DNA of 60,084 nucleotides, the filler included, from Asterionella formosa (taxonomy: Eukaryota): NCBI GenBank assembly GCA_002256025.1. It is 14 parts of 14 records of this genome, joined end to end, with 100 filler letters (N's around TTAATTAATTAA, not from the genome) between each part and the next. Parts side by side here need not be neighbours in the genome. Positions count along the whole stretch, not along the records: positions 4,319 to 8,531 come from NKIB01013648.1; 13 more parts are not named here. One strand, written 5' to 3'. The stretch's first letter is position 1; every line of letters begins with the position of its first letter. Under the pieces are notes generated by a model. The model searched no databases. It was given only the letters and a program-made list of their open reading frames with translations, and was not told where the DNA came from. Below, in pieces: positions 2,647 through 49,886 of the stretch. A program made the translations under genes and the position numbers.

Positions 2647-3434
2647 ATCAACGGGAAGCTCTGTTGTTGTCAGAATCTTAAGTAAATAGCCGTAATCATA
2701 CCCAGAATGGAAAGTGACCCATTTCACTCTATCGTCTAGCACTAGTCCTGAAACCATTAAAAGCTCTCCAAACAAGCGAGGATCGATTCCTCTAGTAGCA
2801 TGGTCTGCAAACGATATACCGGAGTTGCCTAGCAAATCTATGGAGTCCTGAGCAAACATATCATCGTCAAGGCTAAATCGAAAATTGAACTGCCAGCATG
2901 GGCATCCAGAGGCAAAAACTCCATTTTCATCAGCGAAGCTAAGCCCGAGTTGAATAATTTTCAAAAGATCAACATTGACCTTCAGGGATTTGTAATGAAA
3001 GTCAGGTGAAAACGTTTCTGATACAGGTCGTGCCACAATTCCGGGAAATTCCGTGTCCATTGCTACAAACGGATATTTTTCAATCAACTCTCGAATGCAC
3101 GCCATCTCCTCCTCGACATTTTCAGCCCAAACATTCCGGATTTCCAAGGTTTCGCTAAACAATACGAAATCGATGTGAGTACCGGTGGGTAAGGGTGTAA
3201 GTACCAGGGTTGCGTAGACCCCAACGTGGCAATGAATACTTACCCATTTGCATCCTTGAATTCGTGTTTCATCTGTGCATTTGAATTGGAATTGGAAACC
3301 TTTGCAGGGAAAGGACTGCTAGAACGAGAACCAAAAGGAGAACTGTTTCGAGATCTAGAGGGCACAGGAGATTGATTTCTGGAATGCATCCCGCGGGGGT
3401 TGAAGGGTGGAGATTCCGTCGAAAGCTTCATCAT
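2647..3434 (-). CDS. CAF1: CAF1/POP2 (CNOT7/8) DEDD deadenylase, 2 exons, 3' end lost in gap
   Basis: EIRNVWAENVEEEM, AMDTEFPG, NVDLLKIIQLGL, WQFNF, WVTFHSGYDYGY motifs. Exon 3434-3244 joins exon 3154-<2647 in frame across a GTAAG...TTTAG intron (3243-3155, 89 nt). Confidence 0.93.
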
Positions 3435-4218
3435 TTGCTCTGATCACAAACAATAAAACCTACGAACGATGCTGGCTTTACTTGTCTTCTTCGCTCTTGC
3501 GATACACACTAGCAGGAGCTTGCAGATCAAAGGCAGTAACACTAGGTGATTGATTTCGAAAAATGGATTCCCCTGGCTTCGCTGCTTCTCTCTACTGATG
3601 AAAGAAGTACATAGTAAATAATAGCCATCTACTCGAGTACATAATATGTAATCCTCTCTGCCGACCTGATTGAAAACAACGTACTCTACCGTACACCGGT
3701 ACACAGCTAAATTACCGGTAATCCATTTATTACTGGAGATGTGGTACCTGTACCAGGTACCAGGTACTGAGAGCTGAGCTGAGCCGGAGCAGTTGTCGTG
3801 TCCATATCACAGGCGGATTGGAAAAATGGGGAGAATGTAGGAGATCCTCCTATTCTTACATTTTGGGGGAGAAATTCTCCCCTTTTTTCCGCGTTGACTT
3901 TCATTCCCCTCTAGCTTTTAACACGTATTTTTTCTGCGGCCCCGTCAGAAGCAACTTTTTGGGGAGACTTTTCTCCCCAAAAACATGTGGAAGCAGCGTT
4001 CAATTTTGTGCCATCGTTGGATTCACGTTGACAGTACATGCATGATAGCTACTGCTAATTGCTATATCGGCACTTGGTAGTACTATGGTTCCGACTCAGC
4101 CAAATATGAACATCAATTACAAACAACAACAATCAACAATATACCTATGGAAGCGACCCACTGCCACATCAAAACATCATGTCAGACAATGAAGGAATAG
4201 TTTGTGCATCTCAAGAGA

Positions 4219-4318
4219 NNNNNNNNNNNNNNNNNNNNNNNNNNNNNNNNNNNNNNNNNNNNTTAATTAATTAANNNNNNNNNNNNNNNNNNNNNNNNNN
4301 NNNNNNNNNNNNNNNNNN
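4219..4318. other. Artificial contig linker N44-TTAATTAATTAA-N44 (stops in all six frames)
   Basis: Same 100-bp linker starts at 4219, 8532, 12840, 17140, 21447, 25747, 30042, 34337, 38631, 42925, 47216, 51506 and 55800. The pieces between are all ~4.2 kb, roughly decreasing in size. Confidence 0.98.
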
Positions 4319-4776: not shown

Positions 4777-6287
4777 AATGATTGCTGTGTTTGGTTGCTG
4801 GAACTGATGAGTTGCTGTAGCTCTCACTTATTTCTAAACTGAAAGGGAGATCTGGCTTTCGATCGTTGCCTTCGTTTCGTTTGCTATCAAAGGAACGAGC
4901 GATAGTGATCAATGACAAGGGCTATTGATTTGTACGTCAGGAAGCAACGTCAAGGTTAATCAGTGAATACTATAGTGACAATGTCGAGGTGCAATCAACA
5001 ACAGCCGACCGAGTCTTTGACTACTGATTTTATTACGTAAATAGTATGATGCACAGGCTGTAACAAAGCAAAGCACGCACAGCCAGGGACATTGATGATC
5101 ACATACTACCAGGTACCGTACATACCTTTCTTCATCCTGGCTGTGGACGGCCTTGCTGAGGATCATACATTTGTTTGTTGGGGTTCCTTCTTACCTGCAG
5201 CCATCACTCCTGTCCTATGTACAACCACTGTAAGAATCCTACGTTTTACAGACTGGACAGAGTACCCGACACGACAGCCAACCAACATGCTGAACCTTCA
5301 CCAGCGGTCAACTACCGCCACAAAAACATCTATGTACCGCTACATACTAAATCATAGTAAGTACAGCACGTAGCTAGGTACCGGTATTTCAATCCGAACG
5401 ATTACCGTGTATGATACCGCACTGCCATTTCAATGCATTTGCCATGAGCGATGGTAAACGTTTGTCCACATGTGCGTTGTCGTTAGTATCACATGTGCGT
5501 TGTCGTTAGTATCAACAATACCAGCCAATAGAGCTCTCGAAGGCAACGGTTCACTTTCACGTCGGAGGAATTTTGGGTGCGAAAACCGGATCTCGCTCTG
5601 TACTAGATAATAACAAATTCCAAGTCAGGCACATCGGTCGTGTATTATATGTGTAGCTATACATAATACGTTGCGTGATTTGCAAATCTGCGAATGTACT
5701 AGGAGTGCTGCACGTGTACATAGCACCCATCAGGGCCGTTGGTAGACGAATCTACTACCGGTAGCCAGGTCGCACAAACGCACAAGATTCGTCCTTGCTT
5801 ATTTGTAAAAATGAATCGAAGAAAAGACATTAGCCATACTATGTATCACATGAAAGGCCGACCATTGATTTTCAAGGCGCTCAATCGAGAATGCATGATA
5901 GCGTTGTCCCTGGCTGGGTATTTACTATATGTCATCTCATGACTACCCATTATCATGGCGAAGACGTGAGGAGCAAATCGATTCGTTACTTACGATCCCA
6001 AAGTCTACATAGTAAGAGAACGGAGTAAAGTATTCCGTTGTGTTCACTGTAAATTGTAAATGAAGTACCAATAGTCTCTCCCTGTATTGTTGAAGCAGTT
6101 CCAGTAGCCTAGGTATTCCCCAGTCACCCACTACATTCCTAAATCATAATCCGCGAAATAACTTTAGCGAAGTAGTGAGACATTGGAGGAAGTAATACTT
6201 CTACCACGGTAGTGTCAAAATTGTCCTTTAAAATGTTACTTCTATCATCAATGAATGCTGAAATGTTCAGGCAGAAGACGTAACTGC

Positions 6288-7277: not shown

Positions 7278-7749
7278 CTTGCGCAGAGTTCAAATTGTTT
7301 TATTTGAATATGTGGAAAAGCCAAGGCAAGGGAAATTGCAGCGAGACAACGACAGATTCGTCTCGCAGGCTCTTAGTCACTCTTGCTTGTATGTAGTTTC
7401 AATTTTTTTGTGGGGCGAGGGTTTTTAGCTGAAAAAGTCACAAACTCTGAGTTCGGGCAGGAATTTTGAATGAAGCACGTTGCCAGAGGCTAACAAAAGG
7501 CCTCCACCAGCACGTGGTTATATACTGTAGGCGAATGATTGTGCAGGATTCGACGGCCCTTCCAGTCATGAACCCCTTGGTTGTACAGTCAATAGGAGTG
7601 GTTCTTACCAGCATTGCGGTAGGCATCTTGTAAAGTTCACTGCCACCAGGTACCAGTCCCGGGAACACCCGAGAAACGGCCGGAGCACCAGAACTTTTGT
7701 ATGCGAACCCCAACGTATGTCAACCAATTTGATTTGCTGGTACCGGTAC

Positions 7750-8181
7750 CTGGTACCAGTAGGTCTATGGTGGTGCAATGTGGTGCAGCGACAATATGAC
7801 GTCAGCAAGGAGTGCCTTACCGGTAGTTAAAAATTCATTACCGGTAGTAACCTATATACCGGTATATGATACAAAATGCTAGCAATACTTACTAGTACCG
7901 GTATGTCCTATTACTTTTATGAACCGGGTAGCCTTTTGCCGTTGGCTGCTACAAAATACATATCTTATATGAATCTGATCGTGATCCTATGTAGAAAATA
8001 TCACTACGGTAGTGCAGGCCGTAGCACGGATTTGATATATGGATAGTCTGATGGTGCAATTTTGGTTTCTCTAAGTAACAGTGGTGCAATCGGTGGTGCA
8101 ATTGTGGTGCAAATGCCAATGGGCAGTTGAATTTACGAATAGTTTTCTCTTTTTCAACCCTGTTTGGGAAAAGTCCCGGTA
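7750..8181. repeat. Dispersed ~430-bp repeat, copy 1 (inverted copy at 43146-43566)
   Basis: Near-identical reverse-complement match, e.g. tttttcaaccctgtttgggaaaagtcccggta vs taccgggacttttcccaaacagggttgaaaaa. Confidence 0.9.
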
Positions 8182-9414
8182 CACCCCACCACCAGTGGTA
8201 CCGTACCACCTTTCAGTCGTCGCCGTCGCTGTCGTCGTCGCTTGTTTTATACATAAAAGGTTCAAATCCATTTCATTCGCCGCTATCTTTGCATCATCAC
8301 TTGTTGCTTGGAATTCTGTACGTACGTATTTCGTTACTCTTTTATTACGCACGCACAGCATGCCGAATAAGCGTTTGTGGTACCAGGGGTACCAGGTACC
8401 AGTATGCACACACATCATCAGTATTTATGATTTGACCGAAAACCACAAACAATAATTTCCCCCATAGACATGTGGAGCAACACTCCTAAATTTTTTTGTG
8501 AAGAAGAATACCACACCATTAATGTATTCAANNNNNNNNNNNNNNNNNNNNNNNNNNNNNNNNNNNNNNNNNNNNTTAATTAATTAANNNNNNNNNNNNN
8601 NNNNNNNNNNNNNNNNNNNNNNNNNNNNNNNGAGCGTTAAAGCTGCAGCCTGTTTTGTAGTGCTACTCTGCTCCTAGATATTGTGCGTTGTGTATTCGAT
8701 CGTTGCTGTTGCATACACTGTAGTAACATGTATTGCTCGTCGTTGAACACAAAAGTATCTGATTTTTTTCTGGCTGTTGTTGCTTTTTCGCGGCATGTTT
8801 GATGTTCTTGTGACTGATGATGGACTTTCAGAGCTGAATATCACTAATAATGGACCATATCTTTTAAAATTTTATCGAACATGAATTATGTTACTTTGCG
8901 TTGTACAAATGTATTTAGCAAACAGAATTTGATCTAGTTATTTTACTTATCTAGAGATCGTCAAAACTCTTATGATTCATGGTAAGTAAAGGATAAAATG
9001 GAAAATAGTTATCATTCCTTTAGCGCATTAAAAATAGACTATTTCTAGAATCGTCTGCATTGCAATCCATGGCCCCTGTAAAGTGGGGCAATTGATGCGT
9101 TGCTGGGTGGTGGTCATTTCTTCAAAGGAAGTCTGGGTTAAACAATGTGTGGTTTTATTTGTGTGGTTTTATTTATGTTGTCCCAATTCCTGTTGCTAAC
9201 CACTTCATGTATCCCTTGATCAATGATTGACCTGTGTTTGCTTGGATCTACGAAGAAACCTTGACCAAATAGTGTCATGTCAATTCATCTTGCTTAGCTT
9301 CTTATTCAAGCTTGTATTGTGCATGTCCACTAATGGTACAGGGGGATGTGAGCATCCATGGTACTAATTTTCTTTTTGTTCACATAGGAGTACTAGTACC
9401 CTTTTTTAGTCGTC

Positions 9415-10285: not shown

Positions 10286-11597
10286 TCACCAGGAGCCTGG
10301 CAAGGGTGGTAGCTAGCACTTAATAGTTGTATTGTCGGTATCTCAATTTCTCCGCCCGGACTCCTTCGATTTGATTCACATGGATATTTGGCATGACCAC
10401 ATCACGTCCGTCCTTATCCATTATATAAATGCATTAAGCTAATTCGGTACCTGCAAGTTGCGGTAATTTTGCTTCGTTGTGTTATTCATACCGGTTTGCT
10501 TTATCTAGCATATCATACTGGTTGTATTTCATAAACTATTGGCAAGTTGCCTTGAAAATATTTTCCTATAAGCGCATGACCAAGTAGACCGAGTTTCACA
10601 TAAGCGAATTGACGATCACCATGATGCTTACATGTTGCGTTTTTCGTCTTGTTGTTGGTCTCAGCCCCTAATACTAAGGTTTGCTGATGATATTGTTAAG
10701 AAATGTTTCTGAGCAATTTATATATATTGTATGTTCATTTTGTGATAAAATTGTAAATAGCAGATGAATTTTATCATAAAATCACTGGCCCTAATTCAAA
10801 CTAGAAGATGTTGCAATAATTACAATGCTTATTTCATGCATTAGAATCGTTTCTGACAAATAACAGAAACCAGTGGTATGCTGAGTGTGATCCTATTACC
10901 ATTTTAAGTATGATCATTTGATCATACAAATTATAGCAAAAGTATCAGATACTGAAAAACCCTGTGCCACTTAGTGTGTGATACACTGATCCTACAAATA
11001 TGATATCAAATAACTTCATTTTTATGGCGCCTTAAATGTAAAATACAGGGATAGAATCATAGAATGCATAACGCCACTTTGCGATAAATTTAGTAGAGAT
11101 CCCCAACAAATGTGAATGGTGACACCTACCTTGATGTAGCGGAGGAGAGGTGATGGAGGATACCTAATCTTGTGAGAAAGGCGGGAAAATTCCTGAAAAA
11201 GTACCAAGCATGCCAACTGGTAGTTTACTGCATAGCTAGCTTTTAATGGTGGATAGCATCAGACTTGTGAGGAGCAAGGATTGCAGCAATGGAGCTTTGC
11301 TTCGCCTTGCTCCATTGTGGCATTGTGGATATGGTAGACAACCAAGGGTCTGGAAGAGGCTTCCCTAGAAATTCCCTTGTGACTCTCATCCCAAAAGCAA
11401 TATTATATTTTTTGCCTTGGGTGCATTTCAACACTGCCTACTATGTTGGGGAAATAATTGTCATTCGAAAAGTCGAAAAATTATTGATAAGCTCAAGTGA
11501 AAAACAGTCAGGTGTGATGGAAAGTGATGAACTACTGGTACATAATTCATGAGTGGTTGGACTAATAGCTACGTGGGCTTCCTATTCCTGGAACCTG

Positions 11598-12203: not shown

Positions 12204-13089
12204 AACCTGGTCCCCACGCATATGTAGTACCAACTTCAACTGCCTATTTACCGGTAGGGGTACGTCTACAGTTTAGCAACCGGGTAATTGTACTGAACGT
12301 GGACTGTCTGTCCCCCTGCGTTGGTTTTGTACCGGTAGGCTATCGCCGTCCACCCAATTCCAGACTACATTTACATGCCGGTATGTATTTCCGATATACA
12401 TATTAAAAAAATAGTTATAGTGGTTCCATCCTCGTTAGCTACTGGTACCTGGGTATCTCTTGAGCCGAATACAGAAAACAATTGATAGCAATAATGGTTT
12501 CAGTCGATGCGCCCACCATCACGACGACAGTATTGATAATTACATATTCTGCTTCCAGTTGACTGCACTCTTCTCACCTGTTCAACCAATTGATCAACAA
12601 CAAGTGAAAATAATTCGTTAAGAATGGTGAATGCGAAGACAATGAAGGCGAGAGACAGAAAAAAGCAAGAAGGGAATGTGAAATCAAAGGACGCAGCAAC
12701 GACAGTTTCCACCGAAGTCGACGTAGCCAAAGTTTGCGAAAGCAGAGCAGCTCCCGGAAAAATCAGTGTAAGCGCATCACATCCTAACTCCTTTAAATCG
12801 ATCATCCCTCCGCTATCAGCAGGTGTACTCCAGTACATCNNNNNNNNNNNNNNNNNNNNNNNNNNNNNNNNNNNNNNNNNNNNTTAATTAATTAANNNNN
12901 NNNNNNNNNNNNNNNNNNNNNNNNNNNNNNNNNNNNNNNTGATCTAAGACATCAATCTCGTTAGCAAGCTTCTTGACATGGGAACGCACCATTTGACTCA
13001 TTGGACTATAGTCGAGTCCACAGTCCTTGTGACTCATTATAGCCATTGATGCTATATTCTTGACAAACATATTGGGACAACCCTGAAGC

Positions 13090-14078: not shown

Positions 14079-14829
14079 CAAACAACAGAGAAACGAAGCA
14101 AACAAGAAGCAAGCAGCAAAATCAAATTCATGAACGACTACAACAGATCGATGTTACATACCTTTAGAGGGGAAATGAGCGGAGGGCAATATAAATACTG
14201 TATATAAGAATTTGCATCAATTTTTGGATGCGTCACAATTTTTTACTCTTAATTATTAAATGCAAAAGAAAATCTATACAAAGGCCAACGTATCCTACTA
14301 TACCGGTATTGATCTTCAGGTTGCAACCAGCCATAGTAGATTGACATCCAGTGGATCGTTTCGAAAACGTCGTCTTCACATAGGGGCAATGTTTCTTTTA
14401 AGTAATTTCTTACTAATATTTTATTAGCTTATATACAAACCATCTTTGTGCTCAAATTCACTGGCATCAATCATTCCGTACTCTTGTTTGATCGGCCATT
14501 TGGATGGGTGAGAAACAGCACCAGCCAACGCGTAAATTTCATTGCTGCATTATCAGCATCAGCCAAGTAACAAAAACAAAAATCGTCGCCGCATGTAATC
14601 CCAACATCCCTACCGGTACTCCATCCAATCTTCTGGTAGTGTTTTGATACTAAACAGTATCTGTTTCGTGGATAGAGCTTTGGTGGAGGCCTGTTAGTTA
14701 AAGAAGCAACGATTGTGGAGGAAAAGGTAAGCCCATTGTGACTGACATGGTGTCAGAGCTATCACAATCCTCGCCGCCTTCATTGTTGATTGTCAACTTT
14801 TCTGTACCTCTGATGTTGTATCATTCTCA

Positions 14830-15510: not shown

Positions 15511-17359
15511 ATACTAAGCTACTGCAGATTCAGGTGTACCAGGAGCCTACAGCAGGTAAGGCTACGTAGCGCTTTGGTTGAACGTTGCCTCCCCCCCACC
15601 ATGGTGGTGGATACCCCCTTCCCCCAGGAAACGACGATAATGGAAATCACTTTGAATGTTGCAGCTGCAGAATCCTTTAGGGAAGCATCGAACACAGGCG
15701 GAATGGCGACAAACAATCATGACAATCTTGATTTCGAAGCAGAATACTTGCTGCTCATGAATGAACCTTCATATGAAACCAACTACAAGAATACAGTCGC
15801 AACAATTCTCACAAACAACACAACAGCGCCATATAAACCGACTAAGGACACATTGCACAACTCAAGGCAATCCAAGGTAGCGGGCAGTACTCCACAAATA
15901 GAATGGTTGGAGGAACGTCATCCTTGGGCCCATCATTGGCCCCCCTAATACTTATCATATTCCCCCGTGTATATCCAGGCACAAGTGCGATTATTAGTTT
16001 TGTTTTAACGTACTTTAAAATTTGATTTACCTAATATCACACTTGCACTGACAAAAAACGCACATGTTCGCTCAATCAGGATTCCATTTAAAAGATTAGC
16101 CTTTGGTAGGAAGCTACTACCGTAAATCCTGTGCTCCGGTCTTCCACCACGCTCCTGTCTCCTCAGTGTACATCTGGTGCTACATTCTTTTGTACATACA
16201 AAACACTGAAGTGAAGTCGTTATGTTCGGCTGGAGCATCTTGTAATATGTCGTCAATGCCTTGACCACGACAAAAATAGCGAATATCTACATTAAAATTG
16301 AGAACGACGCTTTCCAATTTGGTCCGTATATCATACCCAACATAGTAAATACAATAGTAAAAGAATTATTGTAATAACACAAATATTAACGGCGAAAATT
16401 AGAGACGCAAATGGCACATTTTTCATGAAGTTTATGGATGCACAATTCAAAATGACGATGCTCTGAACAGATTTGACACTGTCACAGTAGCTGCGAAATC
16501 ACTACAACGATGACTATAGCAATAACATGATAGACTGTAGGAAAAAATATGTAACAAGCGTTTTAAACTAAAAATTGGTTGTTTGTATCGATGCCGCAAA
16601 AGGATGCGTTGCATGCCTTTGCTTGTTTGGTTTCTTGACAATGCACCCTACGTATGAGTGAAGGAATTTTTTCTTCATCCATGATGCACAAAAATCATTG
16701 CATGATTTGATTGGCTTGCGGAAATTACTGCAAGACAGAACTTTGTATAACCTACACAAGATACTATGTTTGTAGAAACAGGTATATAAAGCTGCGTCAC
16801 TCTAGAAAAAAGTATCTTACTTGTGCTAATTTTCTGGCGCACAAGTGCGCCAAAATTTGGAAAATCAATTCATCATAGAAACCGATTCAACCAAGAACAA
16901 TATCACTTTTTATTAGCATTTGCATGCTTTCAACTATGGAGAAGAGCATGGGTATGACGTTTTGATCAACAGAAGTTGGCAATGCCAAAATCGCCATCAT
17001 CCAGTCTCCCCATCTAAGTAAATCTAGTCGTGGCTGTGTACATTTGGGGAGACCGAAGCACGGGATTTACGGTACAAGCTATTACTAGATATTTACCGGA
17101 CAATCGTCCTCTAGAACGCCGTGAAGGTGATCGTCACTANNNNNNNNNNNNNNNNNNNNNNNNNNNNNNNNNNNNNNNNNNNNTTAATTAATTAANNNNN
17201 NNNNNNNNNNNNNNNNNNNNNNNNNNNNNNNNNNNNNNNTGAGGGTACCACAACATCAGCAGTTGGTTGCATTTTGTCAAATACAGGCAATGCCTTGTAT
17301 TATGACAGAAAGTATTCAATTCCTGGAAAGGGGGAAGGGTTCACTCACTACGAGCCATT

Positions 17360-18950: not shown

Positions 18951-19758
18951 ACTACAAGTGTGGCGCTTCCTCCGCCGCCGCTCTTCCCCCCCCCCCACAA
19001 CTCCTTCCGATGGTCGTCCCATGGACTTCGACATCTCCTTTCTTCCGACTCCTCCTTGAAGAAATCCTTTGCAAAAGCTCAACGTCAAAGCTCGAAAGAG
19101 CAATTACCGCTGGACAGCCCCGCCTAGGAGCTTATTTCAAGCGCCATGCGATTTCTTTCCCAACACCTTTGGCACCCTTTACCCCACCTCGCCCTCCTCT
19201 CTTCCTCCCCACCATCCTTCCCTCCCTTCTACTGATAACCACGCAAAGCAAGAAGCGTTTGTCTCGCCACTACAACCCTCCACATACACTCTCTCCATCC
19301 CAGAACTCGCTGGCCACAAAAAGATTCTCAAACTTCAACTAAAAACTGCCTTCCCCATTAAGGGAACCCAGATTACATAATAACCAACTCTGGCTGCACC
19401 CAGATAAAATAATTCAAATCCCGGTATGTGCTTACCGGTACCGGTATACAGTATGGTTAACCTCGTACTCCAGTAGGCTACTCTACTGGTACCAGGTATA
19501 CCTTTTATTACCGCGGACGGAATAATAATGCCGTGCCTAGACCTACGTGAACAAACAATATATACAGTACTGTTAAATCATTCTATACCTTGCAACTCAA
19601 TATATTTGCCACTGAGTCAGAGCACAAGAAAAGAACACAGCCTCAGTTCATCGCGACCCTCTCCTTGCTTCACCTTCATATACCTTGACCTTCGGCCATG
19701 GATACATTGGAAATGATTGGATAGCTACTACACGTAGGCTACCGTACTAAGATAATAC

Positions 19759-21757: not shown

Positions 21758-22160
21758 CAAGTCGACAGTGCACATACACACACGCTAATCAGGTTTGAGG
21801 CAACGGACAGTCATTCGAACGAGCGAATGACGATACCACGAGTACCAATTTTTCCAGCGGTAAACCGCAATGATAAAAAGAACTTGTCTCTCTATTGATG
21901 GGGATGACATGGACACCTACTTTTCTAGGAGCAAACAACAATGAAGAGACCCGCTTGTTGCTCTATTGATGGTAACAAAGCAACAGTGAATACAAGAACA
22001 ACATACCAATGAAAACAAGTCGACAGTGTGTGTACGCACACGCCAGGCAGGTTTGAGGCAACGGACAGTTCCAACAAGCAAGTGACGATACCGGTATCAA
22101 ATTTTTCCTATGAACAAACAACAATGAAAAGAGCCACTTGCTCTCTCTCTCTTGATGGTA
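21758..22160. repeat. Diverged direct repeat, ~260-bp period
   Basis: caagtcgacagtg...caggtttgaggcaacggacagt...gacgatacc...aatttttcc at ~21758 and ~22016. Confidence 0.7.
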
Positions 22161-23855: not shown

Positions 23856-25190
23856 GAAAGTTAACTTCTGGGGCTATATGAAGATTACCTGTGTACTTAA
23901 CTCTTCTTCAAACCCAGACAATGTTGAGCTATCGTCCCCGAAATTCGACAAAATCGGCCTTTTCGAAGGTCTCCAATATGTCAGAATCAGAATCACTAAT
24001 CGCCAAAACGTCATCATTGGAATGGTAGTCTTGTGCTAAAATATTTAGTCGTAAAATCTCCTGTACAAAAAAAATTCCATTGTACATGCCAGCTTCACTA
24101 TAAATATTTTGATTGGTCAACTTCAATTACTTACCGATATTTGATTGGCCCGGTTTGCAAGGTGTTGCAAATCCACACCGGCCACACAGGATACACATCT
24201 AAAAATTTCTTGGGTGATTGCTGGTACCCGGTACCTGTTACACTATCCTCTATGGGTGCCAGTAGATGAAGGTTGAAATACAGGAACCGTAACTGACATG
24301 AAAGTTTACAATGCTGTAGTTGTTAGTCAAGTTCTCTCAATATTGAGTTCTGATATATAGGATATAACCCTAACCCTATATACATCTGTATTGATGCGTG
24401 GGATCACTCACCTGGCAAGTGATCTACCGGTATATGACGTACTTGGAATATGTAATAATCAATTCATTGCACTTCATAATGCTGGTAATTTGCGATTAGT
24501 AATATCAGTGGAGTCATCGGTGATGTCACTCAAATTTAGTAAATAAGGATTATTGTCGACCACCCGGTCAATTTTTGTAAAAACACAAGAACCAGGTACC
24601 GGGTAATGCTACGGGAAAGCAGAATGACCGTCTCACGACCCACGACCCACAATATATCATGCCTTCAGATATGAACCACGTTCCACTAAGAAATGTCCAA
24701 CATACCGGTACATTTGATGCTGGTAAGTGTAGAATTGGCAAGAGTCAGCTGGCAATATAGGAATACATCCTACGCAGCATCCCCCACTTTCCTGGCCTCG
24801 ACGAGCGTGTACATACAAGTACAAGTCCTATTTTGACGACAAGTCCCATGGTCAAATCATTTTCTTTTTTGAAAAGTGCAAGTATTATACCACGTCGACA
24901 ACAGCAGTGTGGTTTTAAGTCCAATCATTTACCAGTGGCTACTTCCTACTTATCATTGACAAAAAATACCTGCTGGTACTGACAGCGATCGTTTTTATGC
25001 GTCGTTGCGTACATTTGTTACAGTCACAACCGAAAGGACAAATTGAATAGACATTTTACCTGGGCGGTATTGTTCTTCCTGAACGTTATTGGCAGGAGGA
25101 ATGAATCTTCTCATTTGTCACCCAAACCATTACCATTTGGTGTTATAAAACATCTCTTACATTCTCTAATTGTGAAAAACAAAAAGGACA

Positions 25191-28523: not shown

Positions 28524-29129
28524 CTAGATTTACATCTTAACTATTAGGAAACTACTACATGCTTACATTCCATTCTCCTTTGATTTAGTACAATTTACAT
28601 TCTGAATTCATTTTCTTTTCGCATGCATGATATGATAGCATGCATAAACCGGTATATTGTGGCTTTTTACATACAGGCGATATTTGACATGTACTGCCAA
28701 GCCAAAAATGATCGAGACCCATACTCCAGTGCATGGTGCCTTGTACGTCATGCTAGTAGTAAACTACTACCGGTAGTGCACTAGCTTTCACTACGGCAAA
28801 AAATGGTAGTATTGGGGGTAGAATTAATTGTCAATACTGGCACAGTATCAATACCGCCCTATGTAGAGCACCATCAGCCAGTAGTGTCCCAGTATATGCA
28901 CAGTAGGACATCAGAAGCGTACGATAAGGCTATCTGTTGAAACCACAATGTTCTCAATACATCTCCATGTCCATGAAACAACGAATCCGATGAAGAAAGC
29001 ACACTGGGAGGGCATTGTTTATAAAACCGAATAATTACATTAAAGTGAGCCAGTTTCGCTGGTACCAAACACTCTATTTCTAGTCCTGATCTTCCTTGGT
29101 TCAACCGCAGTCCAGCCTTGTTCGTTACT

Positions 29130-34310: not shown

Positions 34311-34806
34311 TACATAGGTCTTACCTATTTATATACNNNNNNNNNNNNNNNNNNNNNNNNNNNNNNNNNNNNNNNNNNNNTTAATTAATTAANNNNNNNN
34401 NNNNNNNNNNNNNNNNNNNNNNNNNNNNNNNNNNNNGATATTGGATTGACTCGTCAGTCGTTGATTAGTTACTAAGGCAATACCGATAGACATCTGCCAG
34501 GGGGAGTACGGCACTGCCTAGTATGGATGGATGATGGATTATGTTGGCAAATATGAACAACGGGACGGTAGGAAGGTACTACGACCAGAAATGGCAACTA
34601 GTAACGCAACTGATTCGTTGACTGTGTACCGGTAAGATGAAAAGAGACAAATATGAAATAACAGTGATCATAATGTGACGAATATTTTTTATGTACCAGG
34701 GTACCACACCAACAGGTTTATTCCCCTGATGTCATAAAGGTATGAATAGTCTACCTACCGGTAGTCTAGTCTACCCGGTACCAGGGGTATGTACCGCTAT
34801 TACTAA

Positions 34807-35914
34807 AGCAATTCCCGCTCCAGCTATCGTCCTGCCATTCGGGTACTTCTAAGTAATTTTTAGGCTCTAAGTAATTTCTTAAGTAATTTTTATTTAAGGG
34901 CAATATGGGGCACATCGAATTTTTCGGCAATAAAATTGCCGATTTTAGCATGACAACCAGAATAACGGTAATATGCATAGAGATGGTACCTGGTACAACA
35001 ACCGTAAAACACACGAGAATGATTGTAACATGCAACATCAATGAAAATTGAACATGATGTTTGGAGCAACCAAAGTATGAAATGCGATGTAATAAGTAGC
35101 ATCAAATGTGAAATAGAAAAAATTGTTTTGGGTTAGAAATGAAATAAAAAATAAGAGTTCCAATGGAGATGTAGCTATGCATTGTGAATCATTGTAGTAC
35201 TTACACAGGCAGCATTGACTTTCCATCACCATACAATCGAAGACCGAAAGAAGAAGAAAAAAGCTCAACCCAATGTAGACCTGCATCGTTGTTTAGCGTC
35301 AATGGTCTGGTTGCTGCAACCATGCGCATCGCTGTAGTAGCCTGACACCAGTAGCAGTATTTCCGCCACAGTCATTCCTCTCCGCCCACCAAACAGGCAA
35401 TCCTGATCATTCCATTCTGAGCAAGCATGATCGCCACACTGCTCCAGCACTATTGACTCTCTCTAGCTGAGTATTCGTCATGTAGCTTCTGATACGAACT
35501 CGCAGTAGAAATGTAGCAAAGCGCGTTAGTACAAGAAAAGCATTGCTTGGCAGCAATATTGACATCATTGTCAATGACTATACAAATCAACAATGGCACA
35601 TTGAGTATAATCGCCAGGCTGCTTCAGCACTATCGACTCCCTCTAGCTGAATATACGTAGCTTCTGAATGTAGCAAAGCGCGTTAGTACAAGAAAAGCAT
35701 TGCTTGGCGACAATATTGACATCATTGTCAATGACTATACAAATCAACAACGACACAATACCACATCTTCAATGAGTAGTCATTGATAAATGCATTGGTT
35801 CTTATGTAGATATGTACAATCGAAACAAAACGACAGTGCGTAACGACAAACAACGATGGAAGCGATCAAAACAAACCAAGGAAGCAATCAAATCGGAAAG
35901 TCGATAAATACGAT
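34807..35914 (+). repeat. Long non-coding dispersed element (starts AGCAATTCCC), copy interrupted by a Copia LTR
   Basis: Matches 52369 onward, 54487-55097 and reverse 44467-45989; internal ~170-bp tandem duplication at ~35445-35760. Confidence 0.9.
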
Positions 35915-38730: not shown

Positions 38731-39166
38731 ATATTTTTATATTACTGATCTTATTGAAAGAAAGGAAGTACAAATCAAGTACTGTCCATCGGATGCAATG
38801 TTAGCAGACTACATGACAAAACCACTGGTTGGAACGAAATTTATTCATTTTCGTCAGGAAATTATGAATTCAAAGTGAGCATCCGTGTCCAGCAGGAGTG
38901 TGTTGGAGAAAATATTTTAGGAAAGAAAATCCCGGTATAAATTACCTACTACATATTGAATCGAATGAATCAAGAAAGAATATGGTACCAGAGAATTCGA
39001 AAACAATCTACGCCAACAGTAAAAACCCATAATTCTATTAAAACTCTTAGGAACGATTACAATCGATCACGGAGACATCGTTGTTATATCTACAGCCTAT
39101 TTGGTCCCTGACGTGTCCTTACAGGATACAAGAAAGCGTAGAGTGCTTCGGGACGCAATTTCAACA
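38731..39166 (+). mobile_element. Ty1/Copia 3' end: RNase H C-terminus, PPT and 266-bp LTR (38901-39166)
   Basis: Reverse complement of 25311-25746 with two LTR differences seen; different outer flank. Confidence 0.92.
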
Positions 39167-39760: not shown

Positions 39761-42700
39761 CAACTAACGTTTTGGTGTTTGATCTAAAGATAGTTATCAT
39801 GAGATCAAATCAGTTATTCATTCGGTCTAGCCCTTGGAATGCTAATATCAAATAGAATTTTTAGCTTTCGATCTAACGTTCATTACTACTGATCTAACTA
39901 ATTTCTCTCATTGATCAAACCTGTTATCATGTTCGATCAATGATGAACACAAATTGAATTAAATGGATTGCTATTTAATACTCAAATATTCTACTTCTGG
40001 TCACCCATACTTTCCACTGTGCATCCTCTATGAGAATGAGCACACAGTGGTCTTTAATACCTCAATTTTCACTTCCGGTATGTTAGCTATGTTTAGATCA
40101 TTGCCATTTCAAAATGAAATGAGAGAGTAAACGAAATTGATGATGTTTGCTTTATTCAAACCTCTATCATTGCGAATGGCAGCAAGGCACATTCTCCAAT
40201 GTTCTTGTACGGCTTTCCTGTAAGAGATAATAACAACCATGTTAACGAAACTGTTGCATCAAGTAAGCAAGGCAGATATGTGCAACGAAACAATCACATG
40301 AACAATCCAACACTCCAATTTCCATATGAGCAGGCAATGTGCACATTAACTACCTGTTCTCTCATCGTTGATTGTTTCTTCCATTTAGAATGGTAGCAAG
40401 CCACATTCTCCAAGGTTCCTGTATGATTTTGAGGAGATGAATATATCAATGTTAGCAAAAGTGTTGCAACAATTAAAGCATCTCCATAACGAGTATCAAA
40501 TGAGAGTATAGTAACAACTTACCTATGCTCTCACTGTTGATTGATGGGTGACAAGTAGCGTTGTTGACCCTCACATCTGCATATATGGAAGGGAACAATG
40601 CTATTAATGTCGAAATCCTAATTAATGGACACAGACATTACAAACCCTCTGCAGCATTGTGCACAAACAAATTAAGTGCGGTTTCTTACCTCGTTGCTAA
40701 TTAGGTTGATTTTTATCGTTTGTCCTGAGGAATTGTAGAAACTTTGAGTGGTAGAAGCGCCCACGAACAGCGATACATTTTTATAGTTTGCTTCCGGTCT
40801 CACACAGTACCAATCATAAACCCCTTGGTAGCCACAGTTGAGAAGCAAAACAATCATATAACTTACCTCTTCTCACTGGTTGGTTTGATACCGGTAGAAG
40901 GCTCCTCTCCATCACCATTCCCTCATCAGTTTGTTCTGTGGAATAAAAAGCATTATCGGTATGATTTTTTTAACAATATCTCAACATTTCCTCTTCTCCA
41001 AAAAGTGTGTATAACATATATCTCTGTATGTCTATTAACCTTTTTTGAAGGAACATTTAATACCCTACCAGTATGTATAATTAGATAAAATATACAAGAC
41101 TTAACAGGAATTCGAATACCCGGTACTTTGAAACTGTAGTTTTGCCCTACCAGCATTCCCTTCTTCCCCTTGTCTCAATACCCGGTCGGAACATGACGTG
41201 TGTGGCTACAGTGAAACTGTACCTATTACTGAGCTGGTGCTATGAAACTGTAGCTTTGCGCTACCAATCTAATGTTTATTACTGAGCATGTCAGTGCTGC
41301 ATCGCTTCCGATCCAGGACTCACCCACAGTCTAATCCTATAGTTGACAGACCATTATCACTTTCTGCTTCCTTGTTCTGTTACAGTCACGTGTCTCTTGA
41401 CAACTTGACAGTGCAATATATCACTTCTCATCTGAAATGGCAAATGTTCCGAGTGCTAAAAGAAATGGAACGATCTTGGTTGTGAAGGGAATACCAATCG
41501 CAGATTTTTCAATCAGGAAGGCGTATTTCATGTCTGTTCAAGGGACAACGGAAGAGTAAGGAATGACTCTTACTGGTTAGATACTTTGATCATGATGAGA
41601 AAGGCAAGGAGAAGAGACTAGACAACAGGAGTGTCCTGGATTTTGTTCTCATCAAATTCTATGTGGTCCTAGGGTCTGGCTTGTTTAACAAAACATCATT
41701 TGAAACTTCAAGGAAATTTCGGAATCATATAGGACCAGCGATGATTTTATGGAATACTCACTTTCCTCGAGATTTTAGACTACATCAGAAAGACGACAAT
41801 ATGCCACCAAATGCACCCATGAACTACATTCAGACTGGCGACCATGTCCTGTTTCAAGCTTTCCAACTCCTTACTGGATAAATGGGACAAATCACTTTCC
41901 TCCTCGACCTGTTGCTTCTTTATTTACTTTCCCAATCACTCCTACAGTTTTGGAACTCTTTGGTGACAAGTCATGGACAGCTTCTTCCGGATTGGCAACC
42001 ATGTCTAGAGTTTCCTTTAAGTTACATTGTGCTTTTGCTTTGGAAGGGGGAGATTTTATATCAAGTCTATCAGATTCGATAGACTCAATTAGACGCTCTG
42101 AGGAAGTAGAAACAAGATCTACCACGGGCAGACAAGCAACACGATCTTTACTTCTTGGAATGGTATTGGGAGAAGATGAACTGGCATCAACTATTTCGTT
42201 TTCACTCGCCTGTGTCAATGCACAAACGGAGAATACACGACGTCGGTGATCTTTATTTGGAATGACAGGTGGACCGTAATGGTGCACAGAAGCTTGTTCC
42301 TCTTTTCTTCTGTATCAATACCAGCATCAACAATATTAGTAAAAATACAGGGATCATTTGAAACGCCCCAATAACAGATAAGTTTATCAACATCATTGGT
42401 TTCATTTCGACAACCATTGTTACTGTACAACATTGGAATCAGCTATTGATTGAATAATGGTTCTAGTACCATCATAAATATTTTACACTTCTTCGGAGTG
42501 GCAAGAACATATGTGTGGGACAAGCTACACTATGTATATATAAGCTATATATATAAAGCGGTCACTTTGTGGCAATTGTGTTAGGCTGTCCTATATATTG
42601 CCTCTGATGTTGCCGATAAAAAGATTTCTTAAAACAAATGGATAGTTCAATGTTATTAAGCAAAGTTACGATTGTTATTTCGAACCCCCTGCTATTCAAG

Positions 42701-43145
42701 GTTCATATGATGCTACTATTTCCTGAATGAAATGAAGCTACTTCCTGATTAGTGATGTTGCAGCTCTAATTCTGCAGCAAAAAACGTTCTCGCCAATAGC
42801 TAGTCAATGAGAATTGAAGACCCATGATTAAGGCCATGAGCAACAAAATACGCCGCCATCTGGTCCATCTTCACTTTGATCCACATCTCATCTTGAAGAA
42901 CAGATTCGAAATACGGATCGATGTNNNNNNNNNNNNNNNNNNNNNNNNNNNNNNNNNNNNNNNNNNNNTTAATTAATTAANNNNNNNNNNNNNNNNNNNN
43001 NNNNNNNNNNNNNNNNNNNNNNNNACCAAATTCTTTTTACTACATTACTGGGGGTCATTGTCAACCTAATAATGCCGGTAGTCTACTTGTGGTCAATCAA
43101 AGGAACCAGCTACACACGAGTCGAGTACGGTACCTGGTAATAGAC

Positions 43146-43566
43146 TACCGGGACTTTTCCCAAACAGGGTTGAAAAAGAGAAAACTATTCGTAAATTCAA
43201 CTGCCCATAGGCATTTGCACCACAATTGCACCACCGATTGCACCACTATTACTTAGAGAAACCAAAATTGCACCATCAGACTATCCATATATAAAATCCG
43301 TGCTACGGCCTGCACTACCGTAGTGATATTTTCTACATAGGATCACGATCAGATTCATATAAGATATGAATTTTGTAGTAGCTAACGGCCGAAGACTACC
43401 CGGTACATACATGTAATAGGACATACCGGTACTAATAAAGTATTGCTAGCATTTTGTATCATATATATAGGTTACTACCGGTAATGAATTTTTAACTAAG
43501 GCACTCCTTGCTGACGTCATCTTGTCGCTGCACCACATTGCACCACAATAGACCTACTGGTACCTG
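43146..43566. repeat. Dispersed ~420-bp repeat, copy 2 (inverted relative to 7750-8181)
   Basis: Direct sequence match. Confidence 0.9.
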
Positions 43567-44466: not shown

Positions 44467-45989
44467 TTCCTGAAGGCAATACACGCCCGAGGTGGTCTCT
44501 TGCCTTCTCGTATACATGAGTTCAAGACTGGGTGGCGCGAGTAGGGTGACCTTCTGCCAGTAGCGATTCTTTGCCTAACGGATGCGGTTGGTTGTTGGAT
44601 TGCTTGTCTTCTCGAGGCATTCATGTAGTCGCATCGTCCATATTTCGTCGGACGAAAGATGATATCGATACATCTGATGTTGGTGGCAAGTTTTTGCTCC
44701 GGTCATGCATCTGATGATGCTGCCTGAACGGATACTCTACCGGTAATCATCTTTTTCTACATACGTATATGGTACTAAAAACAACCATGCATGGTTTAAG
44801 CTATACTTTAACGCTTACTTTGAACACGTTATAATATTATCTCTGTAGACTCGGTGTTATTTTTACGAGACCTGAAATGTTGAATTATATCGTTCACATA
44901 TTCATTGATTTTACGTACCGTATGCCCGATTTCGTCCTCACAAATATAGTTCTCACTCTATCTTGCCTGCCTTTGCTCTATTCGGGCTTGCAATAGGCAA
45001 CGTTCGTCTTTCATTTATCCCATAGTCTGCTGCTTGTTATGCTAGTTGAAGCGGATCGGTGAGTACAACAGTGAAACACTGAATGTGGATTGTAGATCGT
45101 ATTTATCGACTTTCCGATTTGATTGCTTCTGTGGTTTGTTTTGATTGCTTCCATCGTTGTTTGTCGTTACGCACTGTCGTTTTGTTTCGATTGTACATAT
45201 CTACATAAGAACCAATGCATTTATCAATGACTACTCATTGAAGATGTGGTATTGTGCCGTTGTTGATTGTATTTGTTGATTTGTATAGTCATTGACAATG
45301 ATGTCAATATTGCCGCCAAGCAATACTTTTCTTGTACTAACGCGCTTTGCTACATTTCTACTACGAGTTCGTATCAGAAGCTACATGACGAATACTCAGC
45401 TAGAGAGATTCAATAGTGCTGGAGCAGCGTGGCGATCACGCTTGCTCAGAATGGAATGATCAGGGTTGCTTGTTTAGTGGGCAGCGGAGAGGAATGACTG
45501 TGGAAGAAATACTGCTACTGGTGTCAGGCTACTACAGCGATGCGCATGGTTGCAGCAACTAAAGCATTTACGCTACATAACGATGCAGGTCTACATGATG
45601 GAAAGTCAATGTTGCCTGGTGTGTAAGTACTACAATGATTCACAATGCATACATCTCCATTGGAACTCTTATTTTTTATTTCATTTCTAACCCTAAACAA
45701 TTTTTTCTATTTCTCATTTGATGTTACTTATTACATCGCATTTCATACTTTGGTTGCTCAAAACATCATGTTCAATTTTCATTGACGTTGCATGTTACAA
45801 TCATTCTCATGTGTTTTAAGCTTGTTGTACCATCTCTATGCATATTACCGTTTTTGGTTGTCATGCTAAAATCGGCAATTCTATGCCGAAAAATTCGATG
45901 TGCCCCATATTGCTTAAGAAATTACTTAGAGCCTAAGAATTACTTAGAAGTACCCGAATGGCAAGATGATAGCTAGAGCGGGAATTGCT
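44467..45989 (-). repeat. Long non-coding dispersed element, apparently complete short form
   Basis: Minus strand AGCAA-TTCCCGCT ... TATTGCCTTC-AGGAA; no ORF and no obvious TSD. Confidence 0.85.
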
Positions 45990-46734: not shown

Positions 46735-47040
46735 TTTGGCAGTCTAAAAACGGAGCATATGAAATACACAAAATATGTTTTATATGAAGGGCAAATGCAG
46801 GATTGAGTACCCGGTAATCCAAAAACTGTACATATGAAATATACCATATATGTTTTATATGAAGGGCAGTTGGCTAGTTCGTATCCGACATACATAAAGT
46901 AGGTTTTAAATTTTTAAATGTTGGGCGCCACTCGTTCGGTCAACATCCGGTACCAGGTACCAGTACTCGCGCCTTCCAAGCCTCGAACACAAGAATACTC
47001 GCAGGCAGTCTCCACCCTCGGTGGTGTCTTACCTTCAGTA
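46735..47040 (+). repeat. Diverged right-end segment of the same element family
   Basis: catatgaaata.ac.a.atat.ttttatatga.gggca repeats as at 54105-54215, then gggcgccactc...ggtcaac...gcaggca...ccttcag as at 54392-54488. Confidence 0.7.
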
Positions 47041-47315: not shown

Positions 47316-49701
47316 TATCTTTGACTCTGCTCCATGCAATATAGAGACTCACACAAGAAACAACAACAACAAAGGCACAGCAAATCAGCCAAAGAAATGG
47401 CTCACTTGGTGGTATTCGGTTCAGCTCAAAAATTAAAAGAAGGCTGGTGGCTGTGACGATCGTAGCGTGGCCCGAAGGATGAGACATTTGTGCATCCTGT
47501 AATTCTCGAGGATCAGTTTCTTCACATTTCTTGGTATCTAAATTATAACGCGACCTGTCATATGCGTGAGGCCTGGGTCGACCAAAGTATAACTTGAGTA
47601 CATTTATGACAATCACAATCACACCCAGTACATGAAAATAAATACGAATGCCCACATGCTCATCGCCATTTGGTCCGTAGTTTGTTCCATGCCAGAGTAA
47701 GAATGCTGCAACAATCAAGACAAAAATAAGCAACTTCCAGTTTGGAACTCTCTCTTTTTTGATGTGTTTGTGGTCAAAACTCTCGATTTTTTTCTCCTCT
47801 CCCTCTGATATATCAATTGGAATTTCCTTGCATCCGATGCATAGTCGACAAAGCAAATTCATCATCTCTGAAAAAACCAACATCAAAACAAAGAATAAAA
47901 AGCTTGCAACAGCATCAATGGCAGAATCCGAGCACAACCAAAAAGGGATGAAAGGCTTGTTGACGATAGTCTGTAATATATATTCTGAAGAGAAAAAACG
48001 ACAACAACATTCGGCTGTTACCGTGGTTGCCGCAAAGGCACAAATGGCACAAACTGTCCCTATCAATCCAATGATTTTTGCATTTGTATCCATCTTGACA
48101 AAAGGGGGACTAGTGACATAATCTCCTTCCAGATCATCGTCCTCGGATTCTTTGCTTTTATTAACGCGGGCCCGAATTTTGCAACTGACTGAGTTTGACC
48201 CAACTACAATGACAATCATTTTGCCACTTCCTTGAATTGTCGATTTTCCACTCAAAACTACATCTCCAGGATGTTTAGCAATGAACTTACTCTCCCCCGT
48301 CAAGGTACTTTCATCCACTTTCAAACCTGCCATGAACAAAAAGCTTGCAACAGCATCAATGGCAGAATCCGAGCACAACCAAAAAGGGATGAAAGGCTTG
48401 TTGACTTTTGTCTGTACTATATATACCGAGATGACGAAGCGACGACAACATTCAGCTGTTACCGTGGTTGCCGCAAAGGCACAAATGGCACAAACCGTCC
48501 CGATCAATCTAATGATTTTTGCATTTGTATCCATCTTGACAAAAGGGGGACTATTGACATCATCTCCTTCCAGATTATCGTCCTCGGATTCTTTGCTTTT
48601 ATTAACGTGGGCCCGAATTTTGCAACTGTGTTGGCAATAGGACACTTCGGAAGTTTGAATGCCCGTCTCGGGTGATGACTTGAGAACAAGAGAGGCCAAG
48701 GCCTTAGCCGGAAGTTCCGCCGTCTTGTCGTTGGATTCGTCCTCCCGCAGCTGGACGCATACCTGCAAGACATTCTGAATCCTGGTTTGTTCTTTGGTGG
48801 GCGCTTCTTCGTCGACTGCAAGAGCGTGCGTCCCAGTCTGAGCTCCTTCCATCAGGTCACATAGGGCAGTGGGAGTCCGCTCATTGGCCCAGACGGACAG
48901 GGGCTGGGGACCTTTCAGAGAAAAGGCTAGCTTCCCCGTGCAAGTCCCCCAGTCGCCCAGACTGCTGCTGATACTGGCATCGACTTGCGCGGCCAAGCAC
49001 CCTTGGCGGGGAGTCACATGCGAGTTGTTCCGATCGAATGCAAAGTCCACGGGAGGTTGTTCGAAGGTTGGGTCGGTTTTAGAGGCGATGGTCATTGTGT
49101 AAGAGCGCTCGACGTGTTGGCGATAGGACACTTCGGAGGTTTGAATGCCCGTCTCGGGTGATGACTTGAGAACAAGAGAGGCCAAGGCCTTAGCCGGAAC
49201 TTGCGCCGTCTTGTCGTTGGATTCGTCCTCCCGCAGCTGGACGCATACCTGCAAGACATTCTGAATCCTGGTTTGTTCTTTGGTGGGCGCTTCTTCGTCG
49301 ACTGCAACAGCGTGCGTCCCAGTCAGAACTTTTGTGTTTCCACGCGCTCCGCCCCTTTCTTTCTTGACTTGGTCGTACACCTGCACCTGGACAGTGACAA
49401 TCAAGGGTTTGCCAAGCTCAATATCGATGACGAATACAGACGCCCAATTGGTGCTGAGAGTACTTGCGATACTGAAACAAAGACGGCAAAGGCAGAGAGT
49501 GAACCGAGTTACACGGAGATGCAGAGGGTCAACGACAGGTTTCAATTCATATACTCACGTTTCAGTCGTTCCGATGACATCGGGCTTCGTTCCTGCCTGT
49601 GTAGTAGATACATCACGAGTCACTACAGCATAGGGATCTGAAGTGCCGAAACTGGTTGGATTCTTAAGATTGAAAGCGTGAACTGACAGCTCGATTTTCA
49701 T
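47316..49701 (-). CDS. Chimeric protein: copine-type C2 start, duplicated P-type Ca-ATPase fragments, PAP2 phosphatase (3' truncated)
   Basis: Exon 1 49701-49559 (MKIELSVHAFNLKN...TSDPYAVV), GTGAG...TTCAG intron 49558-49472, then open frame to the contig end. LKVDESTLTGES actuator motif; KLYFGRPRP, PSGH and SRV PAP2 motifs. Confidence 0.7.
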
Positions 49702-49804
49702 GTTTTTGATTCTTCCATGTTTCTCGTTCTGGACTTTTTATGCGTCTGCTTGGAAATCATGTGCGTAAAGTGATTGCATGATGTCGTTACCACACCCCTG
49801 ATCC

Positions 49805-49886
49805 CATAAGCAAAGTCGTCAAAACTGTAGTGGCCCTAACCATAAGCAAAGTCGTCAAAACTGTAGTGGCCCTAACCCTAACCCTA
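49805..49886. repeat. 36-bp tandem duplication ending in a short (CCCTAA)n run
   Basis: ccataagcaaagtcgtcaaaactgtagtggccctaa x2 then ccctaaccct. Confidence 0.75.

Follow-up and report, generated by a model that had tools for sequence, protein, structure and literature searches.

Probable excision footprints of TA-targeting transposons among the palindromic TA-CC(N)GG-TA units of Asterionella formosa DNA

In a 60,084-base stretch of DNA from Asterionella formosa, referred to here as the window, the palindrome TACCGGTA stands at 7818-7825, 7839-7846, and 7857-7864, the first and the third of these being missing in a second copy of the same repeat at 43.4 kb and the middle one being common to both copies. 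The question is how such units of CC(N)GG between two TA arise. The original prediction, which gave the positions of the first and third unit correctly (the one at 7839-7846 is to be added), read them as footprints left behind by TA-targeting transposons. We consider it probable that the CCGG, CCWGG, and CCSGG units between TA are indeed excision footprints of Tc1/mariner/pogo-type transposons and of their miniature derivatives with the termini 5'-CC...GG-3'.

What the window represents is not a single piece of a chromosome but a pseudo-molecule put together from unplaced scraps. It consists of 14 contigs of 4.18–4.22 kb (4,218 down to 4,185 bases, the lengths nearly descending), which are joined by 13 identical artificial linkers (N44-TTAATTAATTAA-N44, e.g., 4219-4318) recurring about every 4.3 kb, and besides these linkers there is a gap of 721 N at 1926-2646. 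Because the contigs are artificially joined, the repeat "twins" in the window are dispersed repeats, and the excess of the k-mer TTAATTAA is an artefact explained by the linkers. The DNA is eukaryotic, with long open reading frames (ORFs) matching an MFS transporter, a CAF1 nuclease, TMEM65, a copia-type reverse transcriptase, an ATPase/PAP2 protein, and a RelA/SpoT homologue; searches of the window for tRNA genes and Rfam families gave zero matches. The public runs containing one of the contigs are labelled riverine, freshwater, or algal metagenomes.

The contigs have some further peculiarities. Two of them share, at a start or an end, 436 bases that are 99.3% identical in inverted orientation (38731-39166 and 25746-25311), probably because of redundancy in the assembly or as a very young repeat. 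The long ORF at 47317-49554 (minus strand), with a piece of an E1-E2 ATPase and a PAP2 domain, contains internal repeats (48334-48628 versus 47893-48187, 92.5%; 49114-49330 versus 48628-48844, 96.8%). In the stretch upstream of it, a tandem duplication of about 36 bases at 49808-49886 ends in telomere-like CCCTAA repeats, and AACCCTA words are found again at 50018, 50381, and 50770.

Abundance and location of the units

The octamer TACCGGTA was found 29 times in the window, where 0.24 copies are expected from 100 dinucleotide shuffles, none of which reached 29, and it takes rank 1 among the over-represented 8-mers of the window when the expectation is calculated from base composition. This bears out the more than 25 exact copies counted by eye in the original prediction, against about one by chance. 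Its variant forms, described there as plentiful and often stacked, are TACCWGGTA with 15 copies (0.21 expected) and TACCSGGTA with 6 (0.34 expected). Together the TACC(N)GGTA sites number 50, they occur in 12 of the 14 contigs, and the scar density is about 0.9 per kb of window. The enrichment is specific for the TA-flanked form and for the core: 29 of the 37 ACCGGT words lie inside TACCGGTA, and the eight control cores of equal composition GGCC, GCGC, CGCG, GCCG, CGGC, GGGG, CCCC, and CCGC were each found only 0–2 times between two TA, with about 0.8 expected. One-sided forms (TACCATA, TATGGTA, TACCTA, TAGGTA) are without enrichment in the window, and forms with three bases from either side are nearly absent, TACCATGGTA being present once. 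Shortened forms are asymmetric, with 11 copies of TACCAGTA plus TACTGGTA versus 2 of TACCTGTA plus TACAGGTA. In 15 joined runs (read from 19 regex matches) two or more CC...GG-type units have a TA in common. For example, the stack TACCGGTACCTGGTACCAGTA at 7741-7761 (TA-CCGG-TA-CCTGG-TA-CCAG-TA) marks the left edge of a 424-bp repeat unit. A target preference for GTAC was considered and dropped, the signal of G before TA (29 of 81 flanks versus 26% background, P = 0.03, stack flanks removed) being too weak for such a claim.

Many of the sites are clustered in front of genes. A cluster at 227-331, with TACCGGTA at 227 and 324 and TACCAGGTA at 307, lies 290–390 bp upstream of the start of the MFS ORF (619). 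Upstream of the CAF1-like ORF (minus strand, 2647-3318), the stretch 3713-3766 holds TACCGGTA at 3713 together with a stack, TACCTGTACCAGGTACCAGGTA, at 3745-3766, and upstream of the ATPase/PAP2 ORF the stretch 49923-50293 holds TACCGGTA at 49923 and 49994, TACCTGGTACCAGGTA at 50047-50062, and TACTGGTACCGGTA at 50280-50293. At 56113-56256, TACAGTACCAGGTA (56113) and TACCTGGTA (56248) precede the start of the RelA/SpoT-homologue ORF (56494) by 240–380 bp.

Further sites are spread along the window: TACCAGGTACCGTA at 5107 with TACCGGTA at 5379 and 5756 (5107-5763); TACCGGTA at 7896-7903, which is common to the second repeat copy (43424-43431); the stack TACCAGGGGTACCAGGTACCAGTA at 8381-8404; TACCGGTA at 12249 and 12330 with the stack TACTGGTACCTGGGTA at 12440 (12249-12455); TACCGGTA at 14301 and 14611 (14301-14618); and, at 19433-19498, TACCGGTACCGGTA, in which two units have one TA in common, together with TACTGGTACCAGGTA. 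Single copies of TACCGGTA stand at 22089-22096, 28768-28775, and 44738-44745. The stretch 24225-24710 contains TACCCGGTA (24225), TACCGGTA (24425 and 24703), and TACCGGGTA (24597), and the stretch 34627-34995 contains TACCGGTA (34627 and 34756), the stack TACCCGGTACCAGGGGTA (34772), and TACCTGGTA (34987). At 40889-41125, TACCGGTA (40889) is accompanied by TACCCGGTA (41117); at 43126-43483, TACGGTACCTGGTA (43126) and TACCCGGTA (43397) by TACCGGTA (43424 and 43476); and at 46808-46966, TACCCGGTA (46808) by the stack CCGGTACCAGGTACCAGTA (46947-46966).

The absence of the motif from conserved host coding sequences, which had been noticed by eye, was borne out: the 8 Pfam-supported ORFs, to which 10,346 of the 58,219 non-N bases belong (17.8%), contain 0 of the 50 sites (P = 5.6e-5). 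Of these sites, 22 are located at most 1 kb upstream of six host ORFs, versus 5.2 expected for the 5,016 bases concerned among non-ORF DNA, and each of the six upstream stretches has at least two sites. When counted by clusters, 7 of 21 are upstream (P = 0.004), which is a statistic from a small sample of contigs that are unplaced scraps and that may carry unannotated genes. The remaining 28 sites are found elsewhere, repeats included. Most likely, the clustering upstream and the absence from coding DNA reflect where insertions are made and tolerated, although the upstream bias could also come from selection for function. As far as location is concerned, the sites are in favor of the earlier suggestion that footprints may be reshaping promoters.

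Differences between repeat copies and between samples

Repeat families were found by self-comparison of the window. In the alignment of 7748-8181 with 43568-43146 on the opposite strand, 435 columns contain 16 substitutions and three gaps, one of a single base and two of six bases. Both six-base gaps are TACCGG, at 7818-7825 and 7857-7864, exactly the two changes of TA to TACCGGTA by which the 7.8-kb copy had been said to differ from its 43.4-kb twin; two other TACCGGTA are present in both copies. The repeat unit itself measures 424 bp at 7756-8179 (plus strand) and 413 bp at 43148-43560 (minus strand, TA-flanked at 43146-43147 and 43561-43562), the second copy being without the TACCGG units of 7818 and 7857. 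Both copies are bounded by TA-CCAG...CCGG-TA, their flanks are unrelated, and a clear inverted repeat is absent from the unit. Near both ends of the unit (7770-8130, 43200-43540), the word GGTGCAA occurs about seven times, each time in the same direction, and these words look like subterminal protein-binding repeats.

A second family has four copies. At 34984-34995, seven extra bases turn TA into TACCTGGTA in one of the four, and the copies at 52546, 54667, and 45829 are without them (the 54667 copy adds to the two originally compared), so that by parsimony the unit at 34987 is a derived gain. The stack at 46947-46966 is missing from a stretch near 54410 that is about 75% alike, as had been observed before; this alignment was read by eye. 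For every 8 to 17 substitutions, the two best alignments of repeats contain about one scar.

Samples, too, differ in these units. From four public runs, each belonging to a different study (X1, X3, X8, and X9), contigs were aligned to 49331-51505, the records seen being mostly 66–350 bases long and X1 giving almost no cover. In one X8 contig, TACCGG is added behind 50124, by which the TA at 50125-50126 becomes TACCGGTA; the depth of this addition is 800 of 5718.7 in X8 and 0 of 77.9 in X3, with X1 and X9 having no cover there. For a second X8 contig, at 49886-49996, the initial alignment gave a 2-base gap and 7 substitutions in a row. Upon realignment this contig is better read as a sequence without TACCGG at 49923-49928 and with a 4-base duplication and two substitutions, whereas X3 keeps the reference letters at 49923-49928. 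The TACCGGTA at 50286 is spanned gap-free by an X3 contig, and the motif is therefore not an artefact of this assembly. Several X3 and X9 contigs match only the stack 50047-50064 and then continue as unlike sequence, which means that in those samples the same stack stands in several contexts. In another X3 contig, 14 letters are added across 50006-50140, the region of the stack. An element-filled next to a scarred state at one locus was not seen, with 0 of 15 listed joints in 49331-51505 of the four runs lying at the ends of the 349-bp element described below. At about 51010-51505, contigs from all four runs are far more numerous than on neighboring bins, which suggests a high-copy repeat at the contig end, depth not being equal to copy number.

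Thus extra letters stand between two copies of TA at 7818, 7857, and 34987 and, in X8, at 50125, with the reverse state at 49923. All five of these differences between copies or samples are gains or losses of whole units at TA, and none is a point change.

Candidate source elements

The window was scanned for inverted repeats directly inside two TA, with any terminal letters and at least 16 of 20 bases identical. Three distinct elements were found (one hit in the reversed-sequence control), and two of the three start with CC. The longer of these two (16118-17074) measures 957 bp with both TA counted in and is a candidate for a non-autonomous cut-and-paste element, in which 18 of 20 terminal bases are inverted-identical. 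Its ends, TA-CCGTAAATCC...GGATTTACGG-TA, are of the type CCG...CGG. It has one copy in the window and is not a foldback. No Pfam matches were obtained with 11 of its 20 stop-to-stop frames of at least 35 amino acids, and its terminal repeat had 0 matches in viral contigs and 0 in genome contigs.

The other is a candidate miniature element of 349 bp including both TA (50398-50746), its terminal bases being inverted-identical in 16 of 20 positions by the scan and in 23 of 28 by reading. Its ends, TA-CCTCCAAGTTGC...GCAACTTGCAGG-TA, are of the type CCT...AGG, and its right TA serves at the same time as TA of a TACCAGGTA unit (50745-50753). It is short and non-coding, carries terminal inverted repeats, has a duplicated TA, and is present in several copies, as is the case with the miniature transposable elements that have inverted repeats (MITEs). 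Its family has four close-matching ends in the window. Apart from the element's own ends, solo ends lie at 10450 and 50357; the former, TA-CCTGCAAGTTGCGGTAATTTTGC at 10448-10472 (plus strand), has no partner end in its contig. In public metagenome contigs, ends of the family were found at three short loci, two of the three ends being directly preceded by TACCAGGTA. Of the 6 ends of the family seen, 3 are directly beside a scar. The metagenome copies are foldbacks of about 95–100 bp with arms pairing almost fully, and a terminal-repeat scan revealed no autonomous copy among the three loci. One of these loci, L001, has six motif sites in 1,023 bases, among them TACCTAGGTA, which is the 3+3 form predicted for CCT...AGG ends. 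Also in L001, a repeat of at least 80 bases (741-830 and 943-1023) begins with TA-CCATTCCGG directly after TACCTGGTA in one copy and after TACCAGGTA in the other; this repeat is possibly one more element end, with CCA as its terminus.

The window yielded no element in which CCA...TGG ends are combined with a clear inverted repeat, the 424-bp unit beginning with CCA but being without such a repeat. Cut-and-paste transposases of any family were likewise not detected among 77 of the 97 stop-to-stop frames of at least 90 amino acids in the window, overlapping frames on known ORFs having been left out. Of the element that the original prediction postulated, with CC...GG ends and a transposase, the first part has thus found its counterpart in TA-flanked candidates, but the second has not within the window.

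Excision footprints and other explanations

Excision footprints are textbook knowledge for single events studied in assays. The insect element Minos, for example, leaves a footprint of 6 bp in such assays, namely TA plus four terminal bases. The net gain at TA in the change to TACCGGTA is of the same size, with different terminal bases. MITEs of the Stowaway and Emigrant type are moved in trans by mariner- or pogo-like transposases. Like these, the 349-bp and 957-bp candidates are non-coding and have terminal inverted repeats and TA flanks, a likeness of sequence features. They are unlike plant Stowaway elements, the terminus of which starts CTCCCTCC, in that their own termini start with CC.

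Transposases of the Tc1/mariner type are reported to cut, on the non-transferred strand, a few bases within the element; the 3' overhangs are then end-joined, and the footprints consist of the first or last 2–4 transposon bases between two TA, with TACAGTA or TACTGTA being left by Sleeping Beauty (PMC6943129). In these terms the units described here are similar in having a few terminal bases between two TA, the A/T central variants of Sleeping Beauty mirroring CCAGG and CCTGG, but they differ in having four or five bases (CCGG, CCWGG) instead of three (PMC6943129). They also differ from the products of the Sleeping Beauty assays in being standing scars of a wild genome, stacked in arrays at about 0.9 per kb and known from sequence data. 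In a genome-wide catalogue of DNA-transposon excisions in rice, which includes mariner-type (Stowaway) elements, 8 of 94 events left a clean duplicated target and the others were associated with deletions or filler DNA, most events lying up- or downstream of genes and not in exons (PMC4423477). Excision as a source of small indels near genes is common to rice and to the window; in the window, however, one or two exact scar sequences dominate and top the k-mer table, unlike in the rice catalogue (PMC4423477). The mechanism of excision is known, and what is unusual is the density, uniformity, and stacking of the scars; searches of the open-access literature and bioRxiv for diatoms or other genomes yielded no description of these properties or of a promoter bias of such scars.

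Applied to the window, the mechanism would proceed as follows. An element would insert at TA and duplicate it, as the TA flanks of the resident elements indicate. From what is known of the superfamily, staggered cuts by the transposase would then leave 2–3 terminal bases at each flank, and end-joining would seal the gap and keep TA, CC(N), GG, and TA; a TA that has gained 6 or 7 bases on balance is what is observed. Each scar having two TA, later visits could have piled up scars into the arrays that are present. Ends of the type CC...GG are predicted to give CCGG as 2+2 bases, CCWGG and CCSGG as 3+2, and CCAG or CTGG as 3+1. In the case of CCG...CGG ends the 3-base overhangs share CG and might yield CCGG directly, and CCA...TGG or CCT...AGG ends might yield CCWGG from 3+2 bases. 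Indeed, the enriched cores CCGG, CCSGG, and CCWGG agree with the first and last 2–4 bases of the resident elements, which end in CCG...CGG and CCT...AGG. The 11:2 asymmetry of the shortened forms fits three bases from a CCA end and does not fit a random loss of one base from CCWGG; the CCA end that it implies was found only on the 424-bp unit.

The interpretation as excision footprints held up when the three findings that had been named beforehand as speaking against it were looked for: TA-CC...GG-TA elements are there, in the form of the two candidates at 16118-17074 and 50398-50746; where the repeat copies provide an outgroup (one of four copies at 34987), the change is an insertion and not a deletion or slippage; and contigs from independent public runs contain the motifs as well, in a polymorphic state. 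Support of this kind is circumstantial, and several observations count against the interpretation, namely the failure to find a transposase among the frames searched, a filled and scarred state of one locus at the joints listed, or an element with CCA...TGG ends and a clear inverted repeat in the window, the scarcity of 3+3 forms, a scar uniformity far above that in rice, and an upstream bias that could also come from function. In addition, there are about 50–65 scars and only 2–3 candidate elements in 58 kb, a ratio which requires that the activity lasted long and that scars were faithfully kept. By a rough calculation, in which point mutation alone erases scars, about 20 scars per element would need an excision rate only about 200 times the mutation rate per base, so that the ratio is not implausible.

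Some of the same observations can be accounted for without excision by a transposase. Foldback miniature elements might be lost by hairpin-driven deletion or replication slippage, the host machinery leaving the outermost base pairs of the stem. The metagenome copies of the 349-bp family, being foldbacks of about 95–100 bp with nearly fully paired arms, would be in keeping with this, as would the lengthening of the palindrome by the TA duplication. We nevertheless regard this explanation as quite unlikely, since remnant lengths are sharply peaked at 2+2 and 3+2, with longer symmetric remnants all below three copies in the table of TA-X-TA words, since slippage between the TA repeats would give back a single TA and not CCGG, and since the 957-bp element is not a foldback. 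Alternatively, CC(N)GG could be written at TA without there ever being a full element, e.g., by a nuclease or an abortive transposase with templated fill-in, which would agree with the failure to see a filled allele or a transposase, with the excess of scars over candidate elements of about 20:1, and with a uniformity that is unusual compared with rice. However, the inserted letters are the termini of resident TA-flanked elements, a modest, sustained rate of excision would probably give the observed ratio, and we know of no enzyme that writes CC(N)GG at TA; such a process thus appears very unlikely.

A role of the palindromes as cis-regulatory sites (with a GTAC or ACCGGT core) under selection in promoters, abundance then reflecting function, would be in keeping with their symmetry, which is that of many binding sites, and with the excess upstream of genes given above (22 of 50 sites versus 5.2 expected; 7 of 21 clusters, P = 0.004; at least two sites in all six stretches). 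It is at odds with the way in which the sites change. A conserved regulatory motif is kept in place and changes by substitution, and the repeat copies and samples reveal instead sites that vary between samples, the five differences all being whole units. Moreover, the cores vary (CCGG, CCWGG, CCSGG, CCAG), the spacing in the stacks is irregular, and 28 of the 50 sites are elsewhere, including inside repeats. This does not mean that a function may not have been acquired later, but as an explanation for the origin of the units we regard regulation as very unlikely. Least credible is an origin from a GGTACC unit by slippage in the manner of microsatellites, or from an artefact of assembly or sequencing. 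The stacks at 3751-3766, 8381-8404, and 46951-46965 do contain the same 7-base unit in the same direction, and slippage may add copies to existing stacks. As the sole cause, slippage and artefact are largely refuted by the fact that most TACCGGTA are single units in unrelated contexts and that independent runs and a separately assembled metagenome also have contigs with the motifs; mixed cores inside one stack do not fit slippage either.

If the units are excision footprints, promoters in an ecologically important group of algae would vary to a large and measurable extent through the departure of transposons and not only through their arrival. The footprints, one of which is the top 8-mer and which are stacked in arrays and concentrated upstream of genes, would then be a readable record of past transposition, and indels of 6–7 bases at TA would be a simple marker for distinguishing strains. 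A more far-reaching possibility, to which we would assign a rather low probability, is that scarring is a self-reinforcing, promoter-directed mutational process and a main source of non-coding change in this diatom. In that case the GGTACC-like TA targets created by scars would draw further visits, resulting in promoter palindrome arrays that are possibly regulatory or nucleosome-excluding, and a helper encoded by the transposon and binding to DNA ends might be behind the unusually uniform scars.

A second class of TA-bounded micro-indels was encountered, TA being replaced by TA-GC-TA in two of four copies (35172 and 54850 versus 52727 and 45652). Similarly, the seven bases 50842-50848, which can be read as a change of TA to TA-GCTAG-TA, are left out in X8 and X9 contigs. 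Micro-indels of this second class may be scars of another element family.
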